This document shows positions 16,009 to 57,063 of a stretch of DNA of 64,000 nucleotides, in pieces (positions within the stretch are counted from its first letter, which is position 1; every line of letters starts with the position of its first letter). The DNA is taken from NCBI GenBank assembly GCA_000004985.1, contig GG738857.1. One strand, written 5' to 3'. Made by a program: the position numbers and the translations under genes. Source of the DNA: Naegleria gruberi. Its lineage: Eukaryota. The notes below the pieces were generated by a model. It was not told the origin of the DNA and searched no databases. It was given only the letters and a program-made list of their open reading frames with translations.

Positions 16009-17977
16009 ATGCTGAAAAAACAAAAGTTTTTGTTCCTTAATTCAAAAAAGTTTAAAAAAAAAATGATCACAATGAACATGTCTCATCCTCATCCTCCGAT
16101 GCTACTCTATAATTCTCAACAGCACGCCTATCTAGTATCATTAGTCTCCCAAAATAAATTAACAATGCAAATAATTCAAGAATCAATTTGTTATATAAAT
16201 TGTAATGTTCCGAATTATTTACCTTCCTTGTTGTTTGTGGCGGTTGAGAATAAAAAGATGGATATGATTAAATTATTATTGAGTTGTTCGCAAATTAATC
16301 CGAATATTGGGGTATGTGATGGTTCTTATTTAAATATATTTAATAATATTTATTGTAAAATATTTACAAAAATTTATTTAGAAAGTTGAACATGTTAATG
16401 ATGGATCCATGGTTATTTCACCTCTTGGACTTGCTGTAAAGAAAGGATTAACAGAAATTGTAAAAATCCTCGTACTGGATCCAAGAATTGAAATTGGGAC
16501 TGGATGTGTAAAGTATGAAACATTTGGAGCAACAAATTACACTTGTTTGGATCTGGCATGTGGAGAATCTTTATTTAAAGTTGTGGAATTGTTACTGTTT
16601 CATCCATATGTTCAAGTTAATCTGCCACTTTTACATCATCATACACACCTCAGACGATATCCATTGACAGTTGCTTGTGAAAACAACTGTATTGAAATTG
16701 TGAGATTGCTGCTTGCACGACCAGAAATTGATATCAATGTTACACAAGATCCAAAGCATAACAATTGTATCGATCAATTCAGTTTGAATACTCCTATGTT
16801 TTCTATTGAGGAAATTAGAAAGGTTGGTTTCAATTATCAAATAATCTATGATTTGATTGTTGCTGGACTCACTCCAAGCAATCCTACGCTTCTTAAAGAT
16901 TATTCACTTGAGGAAATTAAGAGGAGAAAGTTCAAGTATTTCACAAATAGAATTATAATCCAGAAATTTGAATGGGACAAAATTGGAGATACCAATTTGA
17001 CTGCATTTGTTCCCTTACTGAAAATAATGGATCCAGAATTAGAGACCATTTTGAAATTAGGTGTAAACTTTGATAAGGAAGAAGAACGTTTTGTTCAAAC
17101 GGTTATTGATTTTCTTATTTATGGATCGGATATAGATTTTCGTCAATTATTTCAGGCCTATTCTAATAAGGGTCATAATGCCAATATTAAGGGAGTTATT
17201 GGTGCTCTCGTTCTGTGTGGTTCATTACCACAAATCAATAGTTTATGTTACGAGTGTATATCAATACTTATCAAAGACGAATATTCTTTAGATATGGTAT
17301 TTAATATTTGGAAAATAATTCATGAGTACGAGAAGAGATTTCCATCATTATTGCAAAGTATGAACAAGTCCCTTGTTGGAAAAATCAAACAGCATGTATT
17401 AGACTGTATTGGAAACTTTGGACTAAAGAAGGATGCTAATATTTCAGAATTTCTTTCAGATTTTGATAATTACCATGAAGTCATTGAAGCCTTAATGAAA
17501 AGAAGAGCAACACCCTCATTCCCAAAGTTTAGCAAAAACGAAACCATCTCATTTCCATTTTCATCAGTTAAATTATTCGACCAACTTGCTTTAGATTCAA
17601 CAACTGATATAGAATTGCAAATTGGAAAAGAGAGAGTGAAATGTCACAGAACAATTCTCATGTCAAAGAGTACTTATTTCGCTACCTTATTGAATGGAAA
17701 TTGGAATTCACAAAACGATAACTATCCTATTGAAATGAAATATCTCATTCAATTCTGTTATGGATTTTTAGAATATGTTGAACCTAAACTTTGCATTCCA
17801 TTGATGAAATTAGCAAATATGCACGAAATGAAAGAATTAGCCATTCAGGTTGAAAAGCAAGCAATCATCACAAGAATCAATGTTGCTGAATATTTGAATT
17901 CACTTCTAAATGATGTTGAAGAACAGGAGAATGAAATTATTCAAGAGTTCATTCGAAGGATTGTCTTGTACAAATGA
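16009..17977 (+). CDS. Ankyrin-repeat plus BTB/POZ-domain protein. Two exons: 16009..16311 and 16382..17977 (intron 16312..16381, GTATGT...TTTAG, 70 nt)
   Basis: Exon 1 ends ...LLSCSQINPNIG|GTATGT. Exon 2 begins KVEHVNDGSMVISPLGLAVKKGLTEIVKILV, which is ankyrin consensus. The C-terminal BTB domain reads DIELQIGKERVKCHRTILMSKSTYFATLLNGNW...YPIEM. Both exons join in phase 0. Confidence 0.75.
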
Positions 17978-34785: not shown

Positions 34786-37700
34786 ATGATGGTCAATCAT
34801 GAATTGACAGATGAAGATCCACCCACTCTACTCACAACACCACTCAAAAAACCGACACATTCACTTGAACAACAACAACAAGATGAATTGTTGATAATCA
34901 ATACATCTTCTTCTTCTTCTAATCGCAACGATGATTTTCCCTCCAAAAAAAACAACAATAATTCGGTAACGGCCGCAGCTGTAAATAATTTTTCTTCAAA
35001 TTCTCTCCAACAACAAGTACAATACAACAACAATAACGTCGAAAGGCTAAAGAACAATGCGAATAATAATAATAATATAGATAATTCTGGTGGTAATAGC
35101 GCTTCCTCTCCATTGCAGAGAACCAAGCCTTTTGTGGGATCTCCTGCTTCCAATCATACATCGTCTTCATCATCATTGAGAAGTCCTCTTTCTGCTCTGA
35201 CTCCAGGTGGAACGAACAAGGCTACCACTACTACTACTACAACAGAAGATATCATGATGGGTATCGATTCTGTTGCTGAGGAGGTTATTGTGGATGATGA
35301 AGAGGATGATGAGGATGACTTGGAAGTGGTCATCCACAAGACGACTAGACAAACTGAGGATGTTATTGGTGGTCCTGGCGTTGTTGGATACTACTCTAAT
35401 GAAAGCGATAATATGGATGAAGATGATGATATGGAGGATGATGACACTACTATGCAAACCCTCTCCACAAGTCATTCCTCTTCAATTTGTTCAACAACTT
35501 CACACACTAACAAGTTTCCAATGTTGGATTTGAGTGCTCTGAATGGGAATAGCAAGAAGGCAAAGCTAACCTCAGTGATGCAACACTCTTTCATGATTAC
35601 ACCAAAGAGAATTGGTTCCAACTTGGTGAATAGTTACGAGATGCACCACAACCAACACCATGGCAAGACAGGAGCTAGTAATCAACATGTAGATCAATTG
35701 GAGTTACCATCTTCTATCCATACCAAAATGTCTCAAAATGATGATGAAGATGACCTCAACCTAGGTACTCTCAACCTGAATAGAACAAAAACAGCAACAC
35801 AGCCACACCAAGTCTACTTGCACCGAAGAGGTATCAGCTTCTCCAAAGATGTTGACACTCAAGTTTATTCTGACGATGAGGAAGATGACTTGAAGTGTGT
35901 CACTAGTAATCTTGGTCACGATGATGATGAGCTACCAGCAATTAAAACCAAGCCTCATCATGAAAAGAGGGCCTCCGTAGTGACTCAATTCGATGATGAT
36001 GATTTGGGATTGAGCATTTCAACCAGAAAACCTTCAGATCCAATGATGATAGATGACGATGATCTTCAAATCAAAACCTTCAAAAGCCAACATCCTTCCC
36101 AACAGAAATTATTGATTTCAACTTCTAAACAACTTGGAAACCAACGAGCCATGACTGATGATGGTTCAGACTCACCTCTCGGTAAACTCAACATTTCTTC
36201 ATCTCATCAACAAAAACAAACCAAACGTAGTGATGATTCCAACAAATCATCCAACAATAATCAATTTTTGACCGTAGGAAATACTTCAAATGCACCTACA
36301 TATTCTCCAAGAAGTCCTAATAATACTAAATCAGTATCCTTCATGATGCCTTCCACACTGAAAAGTGGAGCCAACCCATATCACTACAATAAGAGCACTC
36401 CTTCAAAACCTTCAATTTTCAATTTGGAACGTCATGTTTTGAGCTCAGACGATGAATTTTGTAACTCGCAACTTGCTGATCCAGAATATGTTCGTCAACA
36501 TTTGGAATTACTCTTTGAAAATACCTCTTCTCACCAATGTCAAAAATTAGAGAAAGAGTTTGAAGAATTGGAGGAAATTGATATGACTACTTGGCTTCAC
36601 AAACGTTTATATTTCAGAACAGGTCTCAAATATATGGATATGAATAGATACAGTAATGTTTTACCTAACGAAGATACTAGATTTAAACTCTACAAGGGTA
36701 TAGGACCAGTAATGCACATGAATTTTTCCTCTCAACAAATTTTTTCCAATTTTGCACTGTTGGCTAATCCATTGACTATTAATACTGAGACACCAACACA
36801 ACCAAAACCAAGTTCAATATCTATTACAAGTAGTAATACTATCAATAATAGTACAACAACAACAAATAACAGTGCCAATAATACTACTAACAATACTCAG
36901 AATAACAGAGTGGTATCTCCAAATGCAGAATTGTTATCCTCGTGGGAAGAAGATTACATTAATGCCAATTTGATAAAGACAAGAAAGGAATTTCTCTTTA
37001 ATTGGGATGAATTCTCAATTAATACCTCTCCACTCAGTATTACCGGTTCCAACTCTGATAGCCCAAATACCAACTATAGCAACAATAGAAAGGAAAGGGA
37101 AGAATTAGCAGAGAAGGTGAATATGGTTGATTATATTTGTACACAAGGTCCTCTTCCATATTCTGCTTCTCATTTTTGGAGAATGATTTATCAGAGTAAC
37201 TCTCACATTGTGTTGATGATTGGTCGTGAACAGGAAGAAACTGGTGTCAAGTGTGCCATCTATTATCCTACTCCTTCTCCAACTGCCAATTCCTTAACAT
37301 TGTCTTCAATTCTGACAACTTCATCTTCTCTGGATGGTGTCTCTCCAAGAAATATGTTAACTATTCCTGGTATGAAGAATGGAGCTACTGATTCGATCAT
37401 TATTGATGTGAACCCTCCAAAGACCATTTCTAACACGCAAAAATGGAGACTTGAAATTACCATTCCAAAGAGAGAACATGGTGATGACGAAGAACCAGTC
37501 AAGTGGATTATGCCAAAGGAACTTGTTCAAAGAGCACTCGTTATCAAACTGAAGAGAACTAAGGTTAATTCTGATGACGAGGAAGTTTTGGATACAAGAA
37601 AGATTCACCTTCTTCAATATGTTGGATGGATAGATCAGAGTGTTCCATCTCAAATTTCTACTTTCCAAAAAGTTATTGATCATGTCAATGAATTAATTGA

Positions 37701-38127
37701 GAAGAGAAAGAATGATATCTTGTCATTGTCACCTCTGTTAGCTTCAAACACCATTTTGCCATCACATTTAGGAAAATCTGTTTTGGATACAGTTGGACCT
37801 ATTGTTGTTCACTGCTCTGCAGGTATTGGTAGAACAGGAACATTTTGTGCTGTTGATTGTGCTTTGAAACAATTCAGAGCTCACATTTTTAAACATGTAC
37901 ACTCTTTGAAAAATCAAAATACTGTCAGTCCTCCAACCTCCTCTCGTATGTCTAACATTCCTGCTTTCCCTTTCAATATTTTCAATATTGTTAAAAAGCT
38001 CAAAGAACACAGGACTGGTATGGTACAGACAGAACACCAGTATGAATTTGTTTATAAGGCTGTTATTAGATGCTATAGTGACATTCTTAAAAAGTACAAT
38101 ATTAACATGCTGGAAAGAAAGAAATAA
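34786..38127 (+). CDS. Classical protein tyrosine phosphatase with an approximately 600-aa disordered N/S/T/D-rich N-terminal region (1113 aa)
   Basis: PTP motifs in order are NRYSNVLPNEDTRF (KNRY), DYINANLI, FWRMIYQSNSHIVLMI (WPD-region context), the catalytic VHCSAGIGRTGTFCAVD (HCxAGxGRT), and the Q-loop QTEHQYEFVYKAV. Homopolymeric T8, N-runs, and DDD or EED tracts lie upstream. Confidence 0.85.
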   Translation: MMVNHELTDEDPPTLLTTPLKKPTHSLEQQQQDELLIINTSSSSSNRNDDFPSKKNNNNSVTAAAVNNFSSNSLQQQVQYNNNNVERLKNNANNNNNIDNSGGNSASSPLQRTKPFVGSPASNHTSSSSSLRSPLSALTPGGTNKATTTTTTTEDIMMGIDSVAEEVIVDDEEDDEDDLEVVIHKTTRQTEDVIGGPGVVGYYSNESDNMDEDDDMEDDDTTMQTLSTSHSSSICSTTSHTNKFPMLDLSALNGNSKKAKLTSVMQHSFMITPKRIGSNLVNSYEMHHNQHHGKTGASNQHVDQLELPSSIHTKMSQNDDEDDLNLGTLNLNRTKTATQPHQVYLHRRGISFSKDVDTQVYSDDEEDDLKCVTSNLGHDDDELPAIKTKPHHEKRASVVTQFDDDDLGLSISTRKPSDPMMIDDDDLQIKTFKSQHPSQQKLLISTSKQLGNQRAMTDDGSDSPLGKLNISSSHQQKQTKRSDDSNKSSNNNQFLTVGNTSNAPTYSPRSPNNTKSVSFMMPSTLKSGANPYHYNKSTPSKPSIFNLERHVLSSDDEFCNSQLADPEYVRQHLELLFENTSSHQCQKLEKEFEELEEIDMTTWLHKRLYFRTGLKYMDMNRYSNVLPNEDTRFKLYKGIGPVMHMNFSSQQIFSNFALLANPLTINTETPTQPKPSSISITSSNTINNSTTTTNNSANNTTNNTQNNRVVSPNAELLSSWEEDYINANLIKTRKEFLFNWDEFSINTSPLSITGSNSDSPNTNYSNNRKEREELAEKVNMVDYICTQGPLPYSASHFWRMIYQSNSHIVLMIGREQEETGVKCAIYYPTPSPTANSLTLSSILTTSSSLDGVSPRNMLTIPGMKNGATDSIIIDVNPPKTISNTQKWRLEITIPKREHGDDEEPVKWIMPKELVQRALVIKLKRTKVNSDDEEVLDTRKIHLLQYVGWIDQSVPSQISTFQKVIDHVNELIEKRKNDILSLSPLLASNTILPSHLGKSVLDTVGPIVVHCSAGIGRTGTFCAVDCALKQFRAHIFKHVHSLKNQNTVSPPTSSRMSNIPAFPFNIFNIVKKLKEHRTGMVQTEHQYEFVYKAVIRCYSDILKKYNINMLERKK

Positions 38128-38129
38128 AT

Positions 38130-41100
38130 TTAATTACCAATCATTTCAAGAATGCTTTGAGCAGTTACAACTGTGCAATGTGGATTCTCCTTGATATATT
38201 TCCTAGTGAGAGTTGTTTCTTGATCTTCAATTTCATCATGATCAATCTCTGCCAATTGATTTTCACTATTTACAATAATCATATCCAAAGACTTGATTTC
38301 ATTAGTAATAATTCCTCCGTTCAAAGCTATAGATCCTTTCAACTTTCTATTATTCTTATTTTCCATTCCAAATAGATAGATTTTCATGCCTTCTAGAGGG
38401 TCATCCTTAGCAGAATCTTCTGCTGCTTGTTGCTTTTGAGCTGGAGAAGCTGATACGGTTCTTGTTGGCGTGTTTGCAGCTCTTGTTGGAGTTGATGTAG
38501 GAGCTTTACTATTAGATTTTGTTGGTGTTGAACTTGTTGAGCTTTTGTGTTGTTGAGTTTGTGGTTGCTTATTCCAATTAGAATAAGACCCACTTCTATC
38601 AAAGTAATATATATATGTTTTGACTTTGGCTTTCAATAGGCATTTCTAATAAAATATTATTGTAAATTAATTAAAATGTAAAGAGCAAACAAACCTTAAT
38701 AATTCTTTCAGTTGAATACCAATCAAAACCTTGAATTCCAAATCCAATTCTAGGCATGTGCACTGTAGCATCCATTGTGACAGCAGAGTAACAGACTTTT
38801 GCTAGGGCAATCTCTAGAGCACTATTAATAATTGGACCGTGACCCTTTGATTTCTCATAGTGTTGAGCAATTACATTTACAATATAGGTTGATCCCTTCT
38901 TACTCTTTACAGGAGTGAGTTGAGCCTCACCGACTGAGATAAGATCCTGTTCACAAGCATTTTCATAAATTAGCTTGATTTTCTTCCCGTACTTGCTGGT
39001 AATATGTTTAGAAATACCAGCATTTGGAAATTGTCCAAAATCTGAAATAACACTGTTGAAATTGTTATCTTGTTTGTGAATAAAAATACTTACTTGACAA
39101 TAAATCTAGTACCTGAGTGTTCATATTTTTCAGGTTGAGTAACATCTCCTTTCACATATTGAATAGTATTACTGTCGGAAGTGATTGGAGAGAATGGTTC
39201 ATCATCTTCTTCCTTGTTGAATTGTTTTTCCATTAGATAAAGGTCCAATTCCCAATCATCAGGTATTTCAATCAAATGTGGATCAAATTCATCATACTCA
39301 GATTCCTCATCTTCATCATCACTAGTTTTAATCTTTCTTCTCTTGGTTGTTGCATTTCTTTTGGAACCTCTTGTTCTGGTTGAAATAGGTGAAATGTATC
39401 CATCATCGTCTTCATCATCTGAAGGAGATAATATGAGAGATTCGTCCTTTTCAACTTCTTTCTTCTTTGGTTTCTTCTTTGGAGCTGCCTTCTTTTTCTT
39501 AGATTTAGTATGGTGATCTGTTTTTTGAGAACATAGATCAATGCCAGCATCTCCCAACAAGTTTTGTAATGCCTCCACATCCTTTGAAGATGAAGTTGTC
39601 TTTGGTCGATAGTCAATTCCGTCGTACATGTAAATGGATCCAGATTCAACATCTTGTAAACTCTCCGCAGCACTTTCTAAAGATAAACTCAATCTCTTAG
39701 GTCCCTTCTTGGCTAATAATTCATCAATGGTGATACCAAGAAGCTTTTCATCTGATTCTTCAGCACTGACGTCAGAGGTAGAGTCCATAATTTTGTGTAA
39801 TCCAAATGAAATCATTTCCATAATAGTATCGGAAGAGAGTTTTTCATCAGAGCTTGAATCAAATGCATTCGAAACGGCAGATGATGTATCAATAGTATTG
39901 ATGGATAGAGCAATCTTTTTCATTGATCTTTTCAAGATTACTTCTTCTACTGAGCTTTCAGTGACCAATCTGTAAACTGTTACTGGCTTATCTTGACCTA
40001 TTCTGTGACATCTGGCCTGAGCTTGTAAATCCATTTGAGGATTCATATCCATATCCATAAAAATAACTGTATCCGCACTGGTCAAGTTCAAACCAACACC
40101 TCCTGCTCTAGTGGAGAGCAAAAAGACAAACACATCCTTATCTGTGAAACTCTTAATTGCTTCAAATCTTTCCTCTCCTCTGACAGAACCGTCGAGTCGT
40201 TCATAATTCCACTTTCTGAAAGAAAAGTAGTCCTGTAAAATGTCCAACATTTGAGTCATTTGAGAGAAGATCAAAACCTTGTGCCCTTCTTGTTTGAGCT
40301 TTTTCAATAGTTTGTCTAAAATAATCATTTTACCACTGTTATTCACAATATGTTCACCTTCAACAAATGGTTCTTCTTCTGCTCCTTCAAACATATAGGG
40401 GTGATCACAACATTTACGTAAACTCATTAGGACATTGCTGAGACCTCTAGAATTCTTCTTACCAATAGCATTTCTATCAGCCATGAGGAAACCCTTGTAG
40501 AATTTCTTTTGTAAAGTTGTCAACCTAGTATAGATGATGTGTTCTTCCTTTGGAGGAAGATCATTCTTGAGAACTTGATTCTTTGTTCTTCTAAGAAGGA
40601 ATGGCTTGAGAACAATTTGGAAATTATTCCTCACAGAATCAGCATCCACATCCTCAACATTTTCATCAATATCTTCTTCAATATCTACACTCTCAGAGAT
40701 GGATTTCTTCAAAGTTGATTTGGAGAGGAAACATTGCTGAGGGAACCAGCTGTCAAATGTTTCGAATAAATGATCAAAGTAAGTTGGAGCACAGAAATAT
40801 AGGAGAGCCCACAGTTCTTTTGTATTGTTCATTAATGGAGTACCACTCATGAGAATGACTCTTTCATACTTGTAGATTTGTTGGAGGGCCTTGTAAAGGA
40901 TTGAATTTGGATTTTTCAGTCTGTGAGCTTCATCCACACAAAGACATTTATATTCGAAACCAGAAAGAAAACTTTCATCATTTGTTACTGTTTCATATGA
41001 TGTAACAATAACATCATATGGAAATTCTCCACTCTCCGCAAACTCCTCATTCAAAGTATCTTGCAATTCTGCACGTTCTTCTTGATTTCCATGATATCTC

Positions 41101-41823
41101 AACACACGAACAGAATTTCCACAAAATTTGTTAAATTCCAAACACCAATTTTCAATCAATGACAATGGCGAAACAATTAGAAATGGTTTCCTTGAACTTT
41201 CCTTGTCAGTACTTTCCATCCAATAACAGAAAAAACTAATCACCTCCAAAGTCTATATTATTACACGATCGTATTCACTCCAAAATTTTGATTACTTACT
41301 TTACCAAGACCCTATTTAAATAGTTGATCAATTAGTTTAAATTTCCAATTTAGAATAAGAAGAAACATACCATATCGTCACCTAATATTCCACCATGCGT
41401 CTTGTTATCCAACAATAAACTCTTCAACCAAGAAACAGCTTGCCACTGATGATTCTTCAATTTACACGAATTCAACAAGTATTTTGATGAAGGATTCGGC
41501 AACTGATCAACATCTCTCATCTCATTCAAACACTCACAATCAATTTGCAATGATTTAATTCTATTCAAAAATACATTAAAATCCAGCGTTTTGTTTTTTG
41601 GTTTTTGCAATTTTAATTTACTCAAATCCTTCTTCTTCTTTTTATTCCGATGATCATGATTGTGGTCATCATCATCATGATCGGAATCTGAAAGAGGCGG
41701 AGGTGAGTCATCTTCATCTTCTATATCTGAAAATTCTTCTTCCGATTGATGATCAACTCGTGGTTGTCTTGTTTCTTCTTCATCTTCATCAACAATGATG
41801 GAATCTTTTTTACGTTTGGACAT
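38130..41823 (-). CDS. ALC1/CHD1L-like chromatin remodeler: SNF2-family ATPase, then a TARG1-like macro domain, then a BRCT-like C-terminus. Five exons: 41823..41371, 41311..41300, 41252..39094, 39052..38695, 38645..38130
   Basis: Exon 1 carries the Q motif HQWQAVSWL...GGILGDDM|GTATGT. The 12-nt micro-exon GGTCTTGGTAAA (GLGK) lies between atttaaatag| and |GTAAGT. Exon 3 reads TLEVISFFCYWM...PFLIVSPLSLIENW...DEAHRLKN and the helicase-C motifs ([43 protein letters not shown]). A 41-nt intron GTAAGT...TTTCAACAG leads to the macro exon (YIVNVIAQHYEKSKGHGPI...VHMPRIGFGIQGFDW, compare TARG1 SMPRIGCGLDRLQW). A 49-nt intron GTTTGT...TTATTAG leads to the BRCT-like exon (KIYLFGMENKNNRKLKGSIALNGGII...TVVTAQSILEMI). 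All splice phases are consistent. Confidence 0.8.
41300..41311 (-). other. 12-nt micro-exon encoding G-L-G-K (the Walker-A/motif I lysine) of the SNF2 ATPase
   Basis: GGTCTTGGTAAA is flanked by acceptor ...atttaaatAG and donor GTAAGTaatc. Upstream exon 1 ends GGILGDDM. The downstream exon starts TLEVISFF. Together these reconstitute GGILGDDMGLGKTLEVISF. Confidence 0.65.
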
Positions 41824-41963: not shown

Positions 41964-43085
41964 ATGAACTTTTCAAACTATAAAAAAATGTCTCAAATTC
42001 AGGTTGCTGATCGTGATTGTGAGGTATTTTCTGATGATGTTTGTTTTGAAATATTATCCTTCATTGAAGAATCTTGGAGTATCATCAATGCATGTTCTCT
42101 CGTTTCAAAACAATGGCTAAATGTTATTAGAAATCGTAGCAGATTATACTTGGCATTTTGGAAGGAAATGAATGATGAAAGAGCTAATCAAATGCTTCAA
42201 AGTAGATTCTTGGGAAATATTCATCGTTTAATGATCTACAAGTTGGATGATAATGCAATTTATGGAGAAGTATTTTACAGAGCTCTACAAGGAATGAATA
42301 ATCTGACATCATTGAACATTAGCAGTCAACAAATAGGTCCAGAAGGTGCTAAATTAGTGAGTGGAGTTAAGCAATTAGAAAAGTTAATTCTAGTTTTCAA
42401 TAATGTTGGTACTGAAGGTGCCAAATATATTAGTGAAATGGAAAATTTAACATCACTCATCATTAGGAGTAATAACATTGGTGATGAAGGAGCAATTCAC
42501 TTGAGTGGAATGAAGAAATTGACAAATTTGGATGTTAGTGATAATATGATTAGAGAGGATGGAATGAGGGCAATCCGTAATATGACACAATTGAGGAGTT
42601 TTGTGGATTGTGGAAGTTGTGCTCTGGAAGAAGTTTCAAAGATGGATCAATTGACCTATTTAGATGTTTCACACAATCTCAGTGGAGCAGCTATAGGTAA
42701 ATTCAATAACTTGACTTGGCTCAGTATGGTTAATACCTGTATTGGTGATAACGAACTTGAATTGATTAGTAAATATCCAAAATTGACCAAGCTCTTTGTC
42801 TCCAATAATTTTATCACCTCAGAAGGTGTGAAACCTTTGAGTGAAATGAAACAATTGAAAGCTCTTCACATTGGCGATAATGGTATAAATGAGGAAGGAG
42901 TGAAAATCATTAGTGAGATGAAACAACTAACGGAGCTCAATGTTGAAGGTTTGAATATTTCAGAAAATGACCGTGAAGTGCTACTTTGTATGAAGAGTCA
43001 ATTGAAAAGTCTTAATATTACTGGATGTGAAGAAATTCCTGGTGCAAAATATGAATCATCATTATTGGATCCAGAGTGGTTCTAA
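41964..43085 (+). CDS. F-box/LRR protein (FBXL-like; RNI-type leucine-rich repeats), 373 aa
   Basis: F-box-like segment CFEILSFIEESWSIINACSLVSKQWLNVI, then about 9 LRRs of the ribonuclease-inhibitor type (LTSLNISSQQIGPEGAKLVS..., LTSLIIRSNNIGDEGAIHLS..., LTNLDVSDNMIREDGMRAI...). Confidence 0.75.
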   Translation: MNFSNYKKMSQIQVADRDCEVFSDDVCFEILSFIEESWSIINACSLVSKQWLNVIRNRSRLYLAFWKEMNDERANQMLQSRFLGNIHRLMIYKLDDNAIYGEVFYRALQGMNNLTSLNISSQQIGPEGAKLVSGVKQLEKLILVFNNVGTEGAKYISEMENLTSLIIRSNNIGDEGAIHLSGMKKLTNLDVSDNMIREDGMRAIRNMTQLRSFVDCGSCALEEVSKMDQLTYLDVSHNLSGAAIGKFNNLTWLSMVNTCIGDNELELISKYPKLTKLFVSNNFITSEGVKPLSEMKQLKALHIGDNGINEEGVKIISEMKQLTELNVEGLNISENDREVLLCMKSQLKSLNITGCEEIPGAKYESSLLDPEWF

Positions 43086-43804: not shown

Positions 43805-45340
43805 GTGATCGGACAGTTCGTTAGAAAATTCATCATGAAAAAAATGAAATTATTCATCATCTTGCCGTTTCTCTTGTTAATTATTCAACTTGTCACTGGT
43901 CAAAGTGTCATGACACAATGTTATAATGGTTCTGCAACACATTACACAGGAACTACTTTTATGTGTGGTTACGATCAAGTACCAACAGCACAATGGAGAA
44001 ATACCATTCCTGTTTATAGAGGTTTCGCTCCGGACGAACCTTGGTAAGTTTCCACCACTTTCATCAGCATTTCGAATATAATTTTATCATCAATTATTAG
44101 GTTAAAGATGACAGATTTATTACTCAGAGCAAGTTGTGGTGAATGTTTCCAAGTAGTGGGACCATACGGAACAAATGCCATTCTAATGGTCATTGATTCA
44201 TGTCCAACTTCGTCCAACACTGAATGGTGTAGTGGAAAAACTTCCATTAATGGAGATCATTCAAGTCATTTCGATTTACTTACAAATGGTAATAATGGAG
44301 CTTGGGAAGCTATTGCAAATGGATTTTCCAATACTTTTAATCCAATTTATAGAAAAGTCAGTTGTCCAATTTCTGTCAATCCTAGTACAAATCAAGCTTA
44401 TCCATTGAGAGGATATATTGGAAAAGGTAGTAGTCAAAATTGGATGACCATCTTTTTCTTTGATTTTACAGTTGGAATGAAAGATACCATTACAATTACA
44501 GAAAGTGGTGGAACTGAGAGAAGTATTACAAAAACTTCTTACAATACTTTTGAAATTCAAGCAAGTAGTGGAGCATTTAAAATGCCAATGGTATTGAAAA
44601 TTACAAGTATTTATGATGAAGTGGTCACTATGACGATTAGTTCAACACCTGCTGAGGGAACTATTGTGGATGCAAGTGCAAATTTCAAGATTTTAACCAA
44701 ATTGTCAGGTTATTCATCTGGTTCCATGTGTATTTCATTACCCAATTTGGTAATTTATAGAGAAAAGTTGGATCCTTATCAAAATACTCTCAAACCAACT
44801 ACTGGTTCAGATTGGAGACAAATGGCTTTGTGGAGTGGTACCACAAATTATGTTTCTACTGCAGTTACTGGTCTAAATTCACACAAAGCTGTTTGGGAAA
44901 TTTCTTTAAGTGGTTATGGTGGAATTAATATTGGAAGAGATGTCAAATTATTGAAATCTTATTTTAAATCCATCAATATGTCCATAAGAGCCTCTAGTTC
45001 TATTGCTGCCTCGAGTATTTATTGGGTCATCAATGGAGACGAAACGAATCCAATGAAATTACCAGCACTTTCCACTTCATGGACACAAGTAAGCATGCTC
45101 ATTGCCAATAATTCTGCAATTCCATCTGAAATTACAATGGTAGGATTCAAGAATGCATTGAATAGTCAATTTACAATTTATGTAGATACTATGGATTTGA
45201 TTTTACAAGATGGAATTAATGCCTCATCCATTATGGCTGCATCGTCAAATTATAAGGTTTCTGAAGGTGCTAATTGGCAAACAAGTGGATTGTTAATTGT
45301 TACCTTGATCATTTGTTTAATTTCAACTATTTTCAATTAA
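43805..45340 (+). CDS. Expansin-like (DPBB domain) secreted protein with a large C-terminal extension and a probable GPI signal. Two exons: 43805..44043 and 44101..45340 (intron GTAAGT...TTATTAG, 57 nt)
   Basis: Signal peptide MKLFIILPFLLLIIQLVTG. DPBB/expansin motifs are QCYNGSATHYTG, MCGYD, CGECFQVVGPYGTNAILMVIDSCP, and HFDL. The codon TGG (W) is split across the intron (TG|...|G). The C-terminal tail QTSGLLIVTLIICLISTIFN-stop is hydrophobic. Alternative start M at 43835. Confidence 0.75.
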
Positions 45341-55594: not shown

Positions 55595-57063
55595 ATGTTA
55601 ACACGTTATTGCAACACCAGTAGCTATTCAACATGGTTAGTATTAGGGATGCTTGTTGCCTTTCTAATCGTCTTGCAACATTGTTCATCCAATGTTGATG
55701 GAGCAGCAACTTCAAATGGTACACTAAGGGAATGGCTCACCTCTTTGCAAAATGAAGCAGCTTCATTAGAACGCTCAGCTTTACAATTGGAAATGGCGAT
55801 TGCTTTGTTGACTAAGGCAAATTCAACAAGTACATCCCTTAGAGCTTCTCAACTTGCAAAGATTAGAAAGTCTATTGCCTTACTTGCAAGTGAAATTCAA
55901 ATCATCAACGAAACATGCTCTACATACACTGGTCAAAACTGTGATAATGCCGTCTGTAATTCAAAGTGTTTGAGCTGTTTTTCTAATAATAATTGTATCC
56001 AGTGTACTGGAAATTGGGATGGAAAAGAATGCTCAATTTGTAAAACTGGATGGGGTGGCTCTGATTGCAACACTCCAGTATGTGATTCTAAATGTAGTAT
56101 GTGCTCATCGCCAGGAGTTTGTTCTGCTTGCTATGGTAACTGGAATGGTGTTACTTGTTCAACATGTAATTTAGGATGGACTGGTGTTGATTGTAATACA
56201 CCAATTTGTGAAGTCAAGTGTAAGAACTGCTCTGCACCAGGTCAATGTTTAACATGTTCAGGTAATGGAATGGAAATGATTGTTCAACTTGCAAATCAGG
56301 ATGGACTGGTATTGATTGTAACACACCTATTTGCGATTCAAAATGTGTGAATTGTACTTTACCTGGTCAATGTAGTACATGTATTGGTAATTGGAATGGA
56401 ACATCTTGTTCAACATGCAGAATTGGCTGGAATGGAACTAATTGTACCACACCAGTATGTGATTCTAAATGTGCTAATTGTACATCACCAGGAGTTTGTT
56501 CTGTTTGCTCTGGAAACTGGAATGGAACAACTTGCTCTACTTGTAAGACTGGTTGGACAGGTTCTGATTGTAATACACCAATTTGTGACGCCAAATGTAC
56601 AACATGTGCCTCACCAGGTGTTTGTTTTGTATGTTCAGGAAACTGGAATGGAGCTACTTGTTCAACATGTAAAACTGGTTGGTCAGGTACCAGTTGTGCA
56701 ACACCAATTTGTGATGCCAAATGTACAACTTGTGCCTCACCAGGTGTTTGTTCTGTATGTTCTGGTAATTATGATGGTGCAACATGTTCCACTTGTAAAT
56801 CAGGATGGGGTGGCTCAACATGTTCAGTCTCGACAACATATACCATTTATGCTGGTGCTGACAATTCGTACACTCTCTACCATAATGGTGTTGCTATTCT
56901 GTCAGGAAGCACTTGGAGTTCTCCTCAAACAACTACAAGAGTATTGAATAGTGGTGATATTTTGATATCTAAAGGTTATGATTCTGATGGAATGGGAGGA
57001 CTCGTGGTTGAAGTTTACAACTCAAACAATGATTATTCAACTGGTAGAGTTACATGGTATTGA
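55595..57063 (+). pseudogene. Secreted tenascin-type EGF-repeat protein (about 12 near-identical 31-aa repeats) with a C-terminal non-repeat domain. A 1-bp frameshift lies at about 56268. Otherwise a continuous CDS
   Basis: Signal peptide LVLGMLVAFLIVLQHC. Repeats follow the pattern NTPxCDxKCxxCxSPGVCSxCxGNWNGxTCSTCKTGWTGSDC. At 56262-56275 the sequence ggtaatggaatgg replaces the ggtaattggaatgg found in every other repeat, which splits the ORF into 55595..56350 and 56347..57063. TGA at 57061-57063 lies directly before a 49-N gap. Confidence 0.65.

Follow-up and report, generated by a model that had tools for sequence, protein, structure and literature searches.

CHD1L, also called ALC1, is a poly(ADP-ribose)-responsive SNF2 chromatin remodeler. 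The K77R form of human ALC1 is ATPase-dead and is still recruited to DNA lesions, while K77 is needed for the ATPase-dependent relaxation of chromatin (PMC5170603). Constitutive coding micro-exons are also well known; they include the micro-exons of at most 27 nt in Caenorhabditis elegans (PMC8378409) and a 4-bp micro-exon in MPC1 (PMC9929638). Intron definition has been proposed as the way in which micro-exons escape the steric limit that exon definition imposes, and a shortened flanking intron removes their requirement for a special factor (PMC8378409). In the literature that we searched, we found no paper on micro-exons in Naegleria, nothing relevant on a Naegleria CHD1L and no statistics on the lengths of introns in N. 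gruberi.

The locus analyzed here lies on the minus strand of a 64-kb stretch of N. gruberi DNA, which we call the window. We consider it very likely that positions 41311-41300 form a real 12-nt coding exon in the CHD1L/ALC1 ortholog, that this exon is present in every functional mRNA and that it lies between two independently recognized short introns (Table 1). Like the constitutive micro-exons of animals, plants and fungi, this exon has canonical GT-AG flanks, appears to be needed for an intact protein and is too short for exon definition. It differs from them in its tiny flanking introns (59 and 47 nt) and in its host, a heterolobosean protist. Because these introns are so small, it is not necessary to invoke PRP-40, which acts across long introns, or enhancers of the SRRM4 type.

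Table 1. Predicted exons and introns of the N. gruberi gene, junction strings predicted for an mRNA with or without the micro-exon, and the corresponding region in related genes
Feature	Position	Strand	Description
Exon 1, N. gruberi CHD1L/ALC1	41371..41823	-	ATG at 41823-41821; ends ...GGILGDDM, phase 0
Intron 1	41312..41370	-	59 nt, GTATGT...AAATAG
Micro-exon	41300..41311	-	GGTCTTGGTAAA = Gly-Leu-Gly-Lys (Walker A / motif I lysine); 12 nt, phase 0-0
Intron 2	41253..41299	-	47 nt, GTAAGT...ATATAG; K/T boundary, phase 0
Exon 3	39094..41252	-	Rest of SNF2 ATPase (motif Ia onward), Helicase_C, linker, start of macro-domain region
Intron 3	39053..39093	-	41 nt, GTAAGT...CAACAG, phase 2
Exon 4	38695..39052	-	Macro domain
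Intron 4	38646..38694	-	49 nt, GTTTGT...TATTAG
Exon 5 (including stop codon)	38130..38645	-	End of macro region and weak C-terminal BRCT match
mRNA junction, micro-exon included		-	GATATG-GGTCTTGGTAAA-ACTTTG; diagnostic strings GATATGGGTCTTGGTAAAACTTTG, GGTGACGATATGGGTCTTGGTAAAACTTTGGAGGTG
mRNA junction, micro-exon skipped		-	Diagnostic string GACGATATGACTTTGGAG
N. lovaniensis, N. fowleri			...GAT GAT ATG GGT CTY GGA AAG / GTKTGT...; no M/G intron, GLGK closes exon 1
Acrasis kona			Motif region without nearby intron
Sea star Acanthaster			Next intron after GLGKTCQ (boundary located by peptide-walk)
L004, a Naegleria-like metagenome contig (ENA ERZ27315067 k141_431645)			Same 12-nt exon, GGATTGGGAAAG
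L004, end of exon 1 and intron 1			...GGT GAT GAC ATG / GTATGT...(37 nt)...AATAG
L004, after intron 1			GGA TTG GGA AAG / GTATGT...(52 nt)...AATAG / ACG GTT CAA GTC ATT AGT TTC...

A first-pass annotation of the window had described a 12-nt exon encoding GLGK between an acceptor and a donor, and had given its junctions as 41371/41311 and 41300/41252. The exon is at exactly 41311-41300 on the minus strand, and both junctions are correct as given. In minus-strand order, the sequence is ...GGTGACGATATG / GTATGTTTC...CTATTTAAATAG / GGTCTTGGTAAA / GTAAGTAATC...GTAATAATATAG / ACTTTGGAGGTG..., where slashes are exon-intron boundaries. The codons GGT GAC GAT ATG precede intron 1, GGT CTT GGT AAA lie between the introns, and ACT TTG GAG GTG ATT AGT TTT follow intron 2; the micro-exon is thus flanked immediately by TAG and GTAAGT (TAG / GGTCTTGGTAAA / GTAAGT), is in frame and, at 12 nt, stays below the 30-nt limit that we set for a micro-exon. 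With the 12-nt exon, the spliced product reads GGILGDDM-GLGK-TLEVISF. Splicing appears to be required at this point, because exon 1, if left unspliced, reaches a TAA within 6 codons (ORF 41350-41823, ending in ...GDDMVCFFLF and the stop). A reading on the plus strand was rejected, as no ORF of at least 40 aa on that strand overlaps 41250-41370.

Both flanking introns resemble other introns of the window in size and signals. In a frame-aware scan, the credible introns of the window were 38-70 nt long, with GTAAGT, GTATGT or GTTTGT donors and YAG acceptors (e.g., 16312-16381, 44044-44100, 39093-39053 and 38694-38646). Candidate branch motifs of the TAAY type occur in both flanking introns, 5-25 nt before the acceptor; intron 1 has a GC content of 20% and carries CTAAT 20 nt upstream of its 3' splice site. 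The same scan yielded many mutually compatible GT-AG candidates at 56455-56743 (+), with a periodicity of 63 nt and recurring acceptors (CTGGTTGGACAG, GTGCCTCACCAG and CTGGTTGGTCAG), which suggests a tandemly repeated coding segment and not real introns.

The arrangement is not a chance configuration. We searched the window with a degenerate pattern of the whole arrangement, namely ATG and GTAWGT, a gap, then AG, GLGK codons and GTAWGT. This pattern has one match in the window and none in 100 shuffles that preserve dinucleotides. We also enumerated all GT-AG splice paths with zero to two introns, each of at least 25 nt, across 41430-41141. Among the resulting 1776 paths, 107 are open and in frame from exon 1 to the downstream ORF. 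GxGK[TS] is restored by exactly one path, whether counted among all 1776 or among the 107 open ones, and this is the path with the 12-nt exon. The view that motif I is absent without the exon is therefore borne out: GLGKT arises only when the micro-exon is included. These results support a 12-nt coding micro-exon that, judging from the predicted protein, carries the Walker A lysine of an SNF2 ATPase.

When the five predicted exons are joined across introns of 59, 47, 41 and 49 nt, the result is a protein of 1165 residues. Pfam matches in this protein include SNF2-rel_dom (PF00176, residues 125-442, 3.4e-70), Helicase_C (PF00271, 3.5e-26) and a macro domain (PF01661, E 1.5e-7, 31.8 bits vs a cut-off of 22). 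Its best relative among solved structures is human CHD1L/ALC1 (E 1.2e-152, query residues 117-1015), with 513 bits vs 398 bits for ISW1. The alignment to the human protein runs from the ATPase to the end of the macro domain, where the human protein ends. In it, human ILGDEMGLGKTCQTI stands opposite Naegleria ILGDDMGLGKTLEVI, i.e., ILGDEMGLGKT vs ILGDDMGLGKT, so that the GLGK lysine would be the equivalent of K77 in human ALC1. All other helicase motifs are intact, and the database matches that rank below the heterolobosean ones are mostly annotated as CHD1L. The gene is therefore the CHD1L/ALC1 ortholog; its product combines an SNF2 ATPase with a macro domain and matches BRCT weakly at its C-terminus. 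As in human CHD1L/ALC1 (PDB 7otq, 7enn and 7epu), the SNF2 ATPase is followed by a C-terminal macro domain and GLGKT is identical. The Naegleria protein departs from the human one in its N-terminal extension of ~115 residues, which is acidic or of low complexity, and in the additional C-terminal segment with the weak BRCT match. Among the matches listed, BRCT families accompany many CHD1L proteins of invertebrates and none of those of mammals. Two ORFs on the opposite strand adjoin the remodeler gene. One (34786-38127 (+), 1113 aa) converges on it, is rich in runs of Asn, Thr and Ser and ends in what, by eye, resembles a tyrosine-phosphatase signature (VHCSAGIGRTG). The other (41964-43085 (+), 373 aa) diverges from it and, by eye, resembles a leucine-rich-repeat protein. 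At the N. lovaniensis and N. fowleri loci, different neighboring genes are called (DUF4246 upstream).

The public gene model for this locus bears on how easily such an exon is missed. The 100%-identical database protein is annotated as 'predicted protein [Naegleria gruberi]' (EFC46901.1 / XP_002679645.1 / UniProt D2V921 / NAEGRDRAFT_65361), and the translation of exon 1 is identical to the N-terminus of XP_002679645.1. The peptide GDDMGLGKTLEV is present in XP_002679645.1 / D2V921, within the longer context ...GGILGDDMGLGKTLEVISFF.... Because a single GT-AG path can produce the GLGK junction peptide, the 12-nt exon must already be part of the public model. The first-pass annotation had considered such exons easily missed by gene predictors, which would then yield a dead enzyme. 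For N. gruberi this concern does not hold, since XP_002679645.1 has GLGK, but it does hold for a prokaryote-style caller on L004, which cut the ortholog into three pieces (134, 655 and 309 residues) and placed the first break at the precise site of the micro-exon.

The error in the public model lies elsewhere. XP_002679645.1 (1001 aa) runs through the 49-nt intron 4, ending in ...IIKVCLLFTF and a stop, and therefore lacks the last exon (171 residues, 38645-38130). With this exon, the N. gruberi protein matches its N. lovaniensis ortholog in length (1165 aa), and the alignment to human CHD1L extends beyond the point at which the public model is truncated (KKCLLKAKVKTYIYYFDRS against RKHLAARGIPTYIYYFPRS). 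The added tail has a weak BRCT match in N. gruberi (PF16589, E 0.0034), and the tail of the N. lovaniensis protein has a BRCT match to PF00533 (E 1.4e-4). The exact 1165-aa model was absent from the protein collection, and the D2V921 cluster has one member, with no cDNA-derived copy.

The first-pass annotation had proposed that orthologs be compared to see whether GLGK is an independent exon elsewhere. For the Naegleria species and Acrasis kona, annotated proteins were mapped exactly onto their own genomic loci. GLGK is a separate exon in L004, and is not one in N. fowleri, N. lovaniensis, Acrasis or the sea star, whose CHD1L gene has a different structure, with its nearest intron after GLGKTCQ. 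When L004 is spliced at introns 1 and 2 and at the shared intron 3, it gives an uninterrupted ortholog of 1117 aa, with exon 3 beginning TVQVISFF. This protein is 59% identical to that of N. gruberi and 63-64% identical to those of the other two Naegleria species. The CHD1L proteins of N. fowleri and N. lovaniensis (P0003 and P0002) are 62-63% identical to the N. gruberi protein, have the same order of domains and share introns 2 and 3; they differ from it in that no intron separates GDDM from GLGK, which forms the last four codons of exon 1. Overall, intron 1 is found in N. gruberi and L004 and is absent from N. fowleri, N. lovaniensis and Acrasis. The positions of intron 2 (K/T, phase 0) and intron 3 (phase 2) are common to all four genes of the Naegleria clade, while among these genes intron 4 occurs in N. 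gruberi alone.

Between N. gruberi and L004, the micro-exon differs at 5 of its 12 nucleotides. All five differences are synonymous, and the phases as well as the internal acceptor and donor are kept. Indeed, only synonymous differences distinguish the GLGK codon sets of the four Naegleria-clade genes. Synonymous-only change together with retained splice sites is the signature that a translated, spliced exon under purifying selection would leave, and it is the strongest evidence that we have. This evidence bears directly on the possibility that the micro-exon is unused, i.e., that 41370-41253 is removed as one intron, that the product is an inactive pseudo-remodeler and that the potential to encode GLGK is a relic. 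Such a 118-nt GT-AG intron would be open and in frame. However, a relic would not be expected to keep both GLGK, through five substitutions that are only synonymous, and both splice sites at ~41% protein divergence. Moreover, the remaining helicase motifs are all intact, and 118 nt exceeds the 38-70 nt of the credible introns in the window. We consider this possibility so improbable as to be nearly negligible.

Our searches for further instances of the arrangement were conducted in two ways on JGI metagenome contigs. A scan for further orthologs with the four-species alignment gave 253 pattern-matching stretches, none of which was confirmed. The degenerate DNA pattern of the architecture found none, using a gap range of 20-50 that covers upstream introns of 28-58 nt only and is one base below the range that would match the 59-nt intron 1 of N. 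gruberi. Apart from the L004 fragment, a profile search with the exon 1 region found nothing but three short pieces from unrelated eukaryotes; their intron is another one, which interrupts the second Gly codon in phase 1. An additional observation concerns the N. fowleri annotation (VFQX01000022.1, L002:5560-5636), in which a 77-nt CHD1L 'intron' removes the conserved coding sequence DYDEYDPHSITIPEDWDLELYLMEK. Three-frame translation reveals a frameshift just past this 'intron', which looks as if the predictor had introduced it to bypass an indel; the indel itself would be a real mutation or an error of assembly.

As to how the exon would be spliced, we propose that each flanking intron is recognized alone, by means of its own GTAWGT donor, candidate branch site of the TAAY type and TAG acceptor. 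Splice sites would be paired across the intron (intron definition), as might be expected with genome introns of ~40-70 nt, and with such pairing the length of the exon would not be limiting. Introns 1 and 2 would probably be removed sequentially, because a U1 snRNP and a 3'-splice-site complex could hardly fit together on 12 nt. The 12-nt exon would then be a passive consequence of two ordinary introns; it would always be included, and its inclusion would insert GLGK. We infer that the N. gruberi spliceosome handles micro-exons, as the first-pass annotation had also stated, and this would be unsurprising in a genome with introns of 40-70 nt.

It is important to consider that the exon might instead be included alternatively. 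Removal of the single 118-nt intron at 41370-41253 would give an ALC1 that lacks Walker A and could still bind poly(ADP-ribose) by way of the macro domain and act as a regulated, ATPase-dead competitor. Because 12 nt are four codons in phases 0-0, skipping would be in frame, and the frame does stay open. Human ATPase-dead ALC1 K77R still reaches sites of damage (PMC5170603), transcriptomes of N. gruberi (RNA-seq PRJEB23822) show exon skipping (PMC6142364), and the two-intron arrangement has been kept in two deep lineages, N. gruberi and L004. However, nothing positive indicates regulation, and intron retention is more frequent than exon skipping in all studied species but one (PMC6142364). Furthermore, such a switch would be dispensable within the genus: in N. 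fowleri and N. lovaniensis, GLGK is fused to exon 1, which makes skipping impossible there. Alternative inclusion is therefore very improbable in our judgment. The proposal that the 12-nt exon is a conserved on/off cassette, whose regulated skipping produces an ALC1 that docks on poly(ADP-ribose) and is dead for ATP hydrolysis, seems to us very improbable. If it were true, the cassette would give Naegleria a dominant-negative remodeler controlled by splicing, in DNA damage or in differentiation. We therefore retain constitutive inclusion as the likely behavior of this exon.

The distribution of intron 1 raises the question of its history. We constructed a neighbor-joining tree of a single gene, using the CHD1L proteins and rooting on Acrasis. 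In 256 of 300 bootstraps, this tree has L004 branching outside (N. gruberi, (N. lovaniensis, N. fowleri)). On such a tree, the most economical history, which we consider probable, has both introns, and with them the micro-exon, already present in the ancestor of the Naegleria clade, and has intron 1 lost precisely in the stem of N. fowleri and N. lovaniensis, which would have fused GLGK to exon 1. However, the classical model, in which introns are lost by recombination with fully spliced cDNA, does not easily explain how intron 1 could disappear while intron 2, 12 nt away, stayed; an intermediate that was only partially spliced, or a deletion in the genomic DNA, would accommodate this.

It is less likely, though a real possibility, that intron 1 is instead a recent gain between ATG and GGT, by a single event in the shared ancestor of N. 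gruberi and L004 or by two parallel ones, with no loss in N. fowleri and N. lovaniensis. Acrasis, N. fowleri and N. lovaniensis all lack the intron, recombination with a fully spliced cDNA would hardly remove one intron and spare its neighbor 12 nt off, and intron 1 of N. gruberi resembles that of L004 in its splice signals only. In addition, N. gruberi groups with L004 in 25 of the 300 bootstraps. Against a gain, the preferred tree (85% bootstrap) would need two independent insertions at an identical site and in the same phase. Acrasis is nearly uninformative on polarity, as it shares none of its CHD1L intron positions with Naegleria. We also looked for copies of the flanking introns, as expected of an introner family, with blastn-short in the window and all loci; over these ~130 kb, which make for a weak test, the four flanking introns had only self matches and chance matches of at most 19 nt, and so no introner-like copies. 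Ancestry followed by loss is thus favored over gain, and we keep this preference modest because the tree is of one gene, Acrasis and Naegleria share no intron positions in it and the mechanism of loss is awkward.

Introns beside the Walker A motif are also present in other genes. The chytrid Obelidium mucronatum resembles N. gruberi in having a 12-nt CHD1L exon beside Walker A, in a predicted model (L005:~669-680, JAIVFH010000006.1). It is not the same exon as that of N. gruberi: CTGACGAAATGG has phases 1-1 and codes for (A)DEM(G), immediately before GLGK, and the intron that follows is 1 nt off the position of the N. gruberi intron 1. The two 12-nt exons are most likely of independent origin. 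In an SNF2 gene of other eukaryotes (L007:420-490 and L009:715-785, with L008 carrying the same gene as L007), a phase 1 intron lies inside the second Gly codon of GLGK. Here the unspliced read-through, GGA TTA GGT AAG TGA, gives GLGK followed by a stop and so mimics the motif. The codons TTA-GGT-AAG are a consensus 5' splice site (AG / GTAAG), and it may be that GLGK codons that double as a 5' splice site help to explain why introns recur around this motif.

The reference annotation already has the micro-exon, which is a fairly ordinary member of a well-known class. What we add is modest: its conservation in a second deep lineage, the finding that it is not a separate exon in N. fowleri and N. 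lovaniensis, and the C-terminal error in the public model. Its main import concerns the quality of annotation, in that an exon of four codons can carry the residue that makes an ATPase active, and callers that are blind to introns cut such genes at the micro-exon, as on L004. In N. gruberi, it is the 3' end of the gene model that would benefit from correction, by restoring the final exon, which encodes 171 residues and has the weak BRCT match. The case illustrates intron loss or gain neatly but is no new phenomenon. Within one genus, the locus presents a compact polymorphism of intron presence and absence, in which a single intron makes or erases a micro-exon, and the retention of an intron only 12 nt away constrains models of intron loss.
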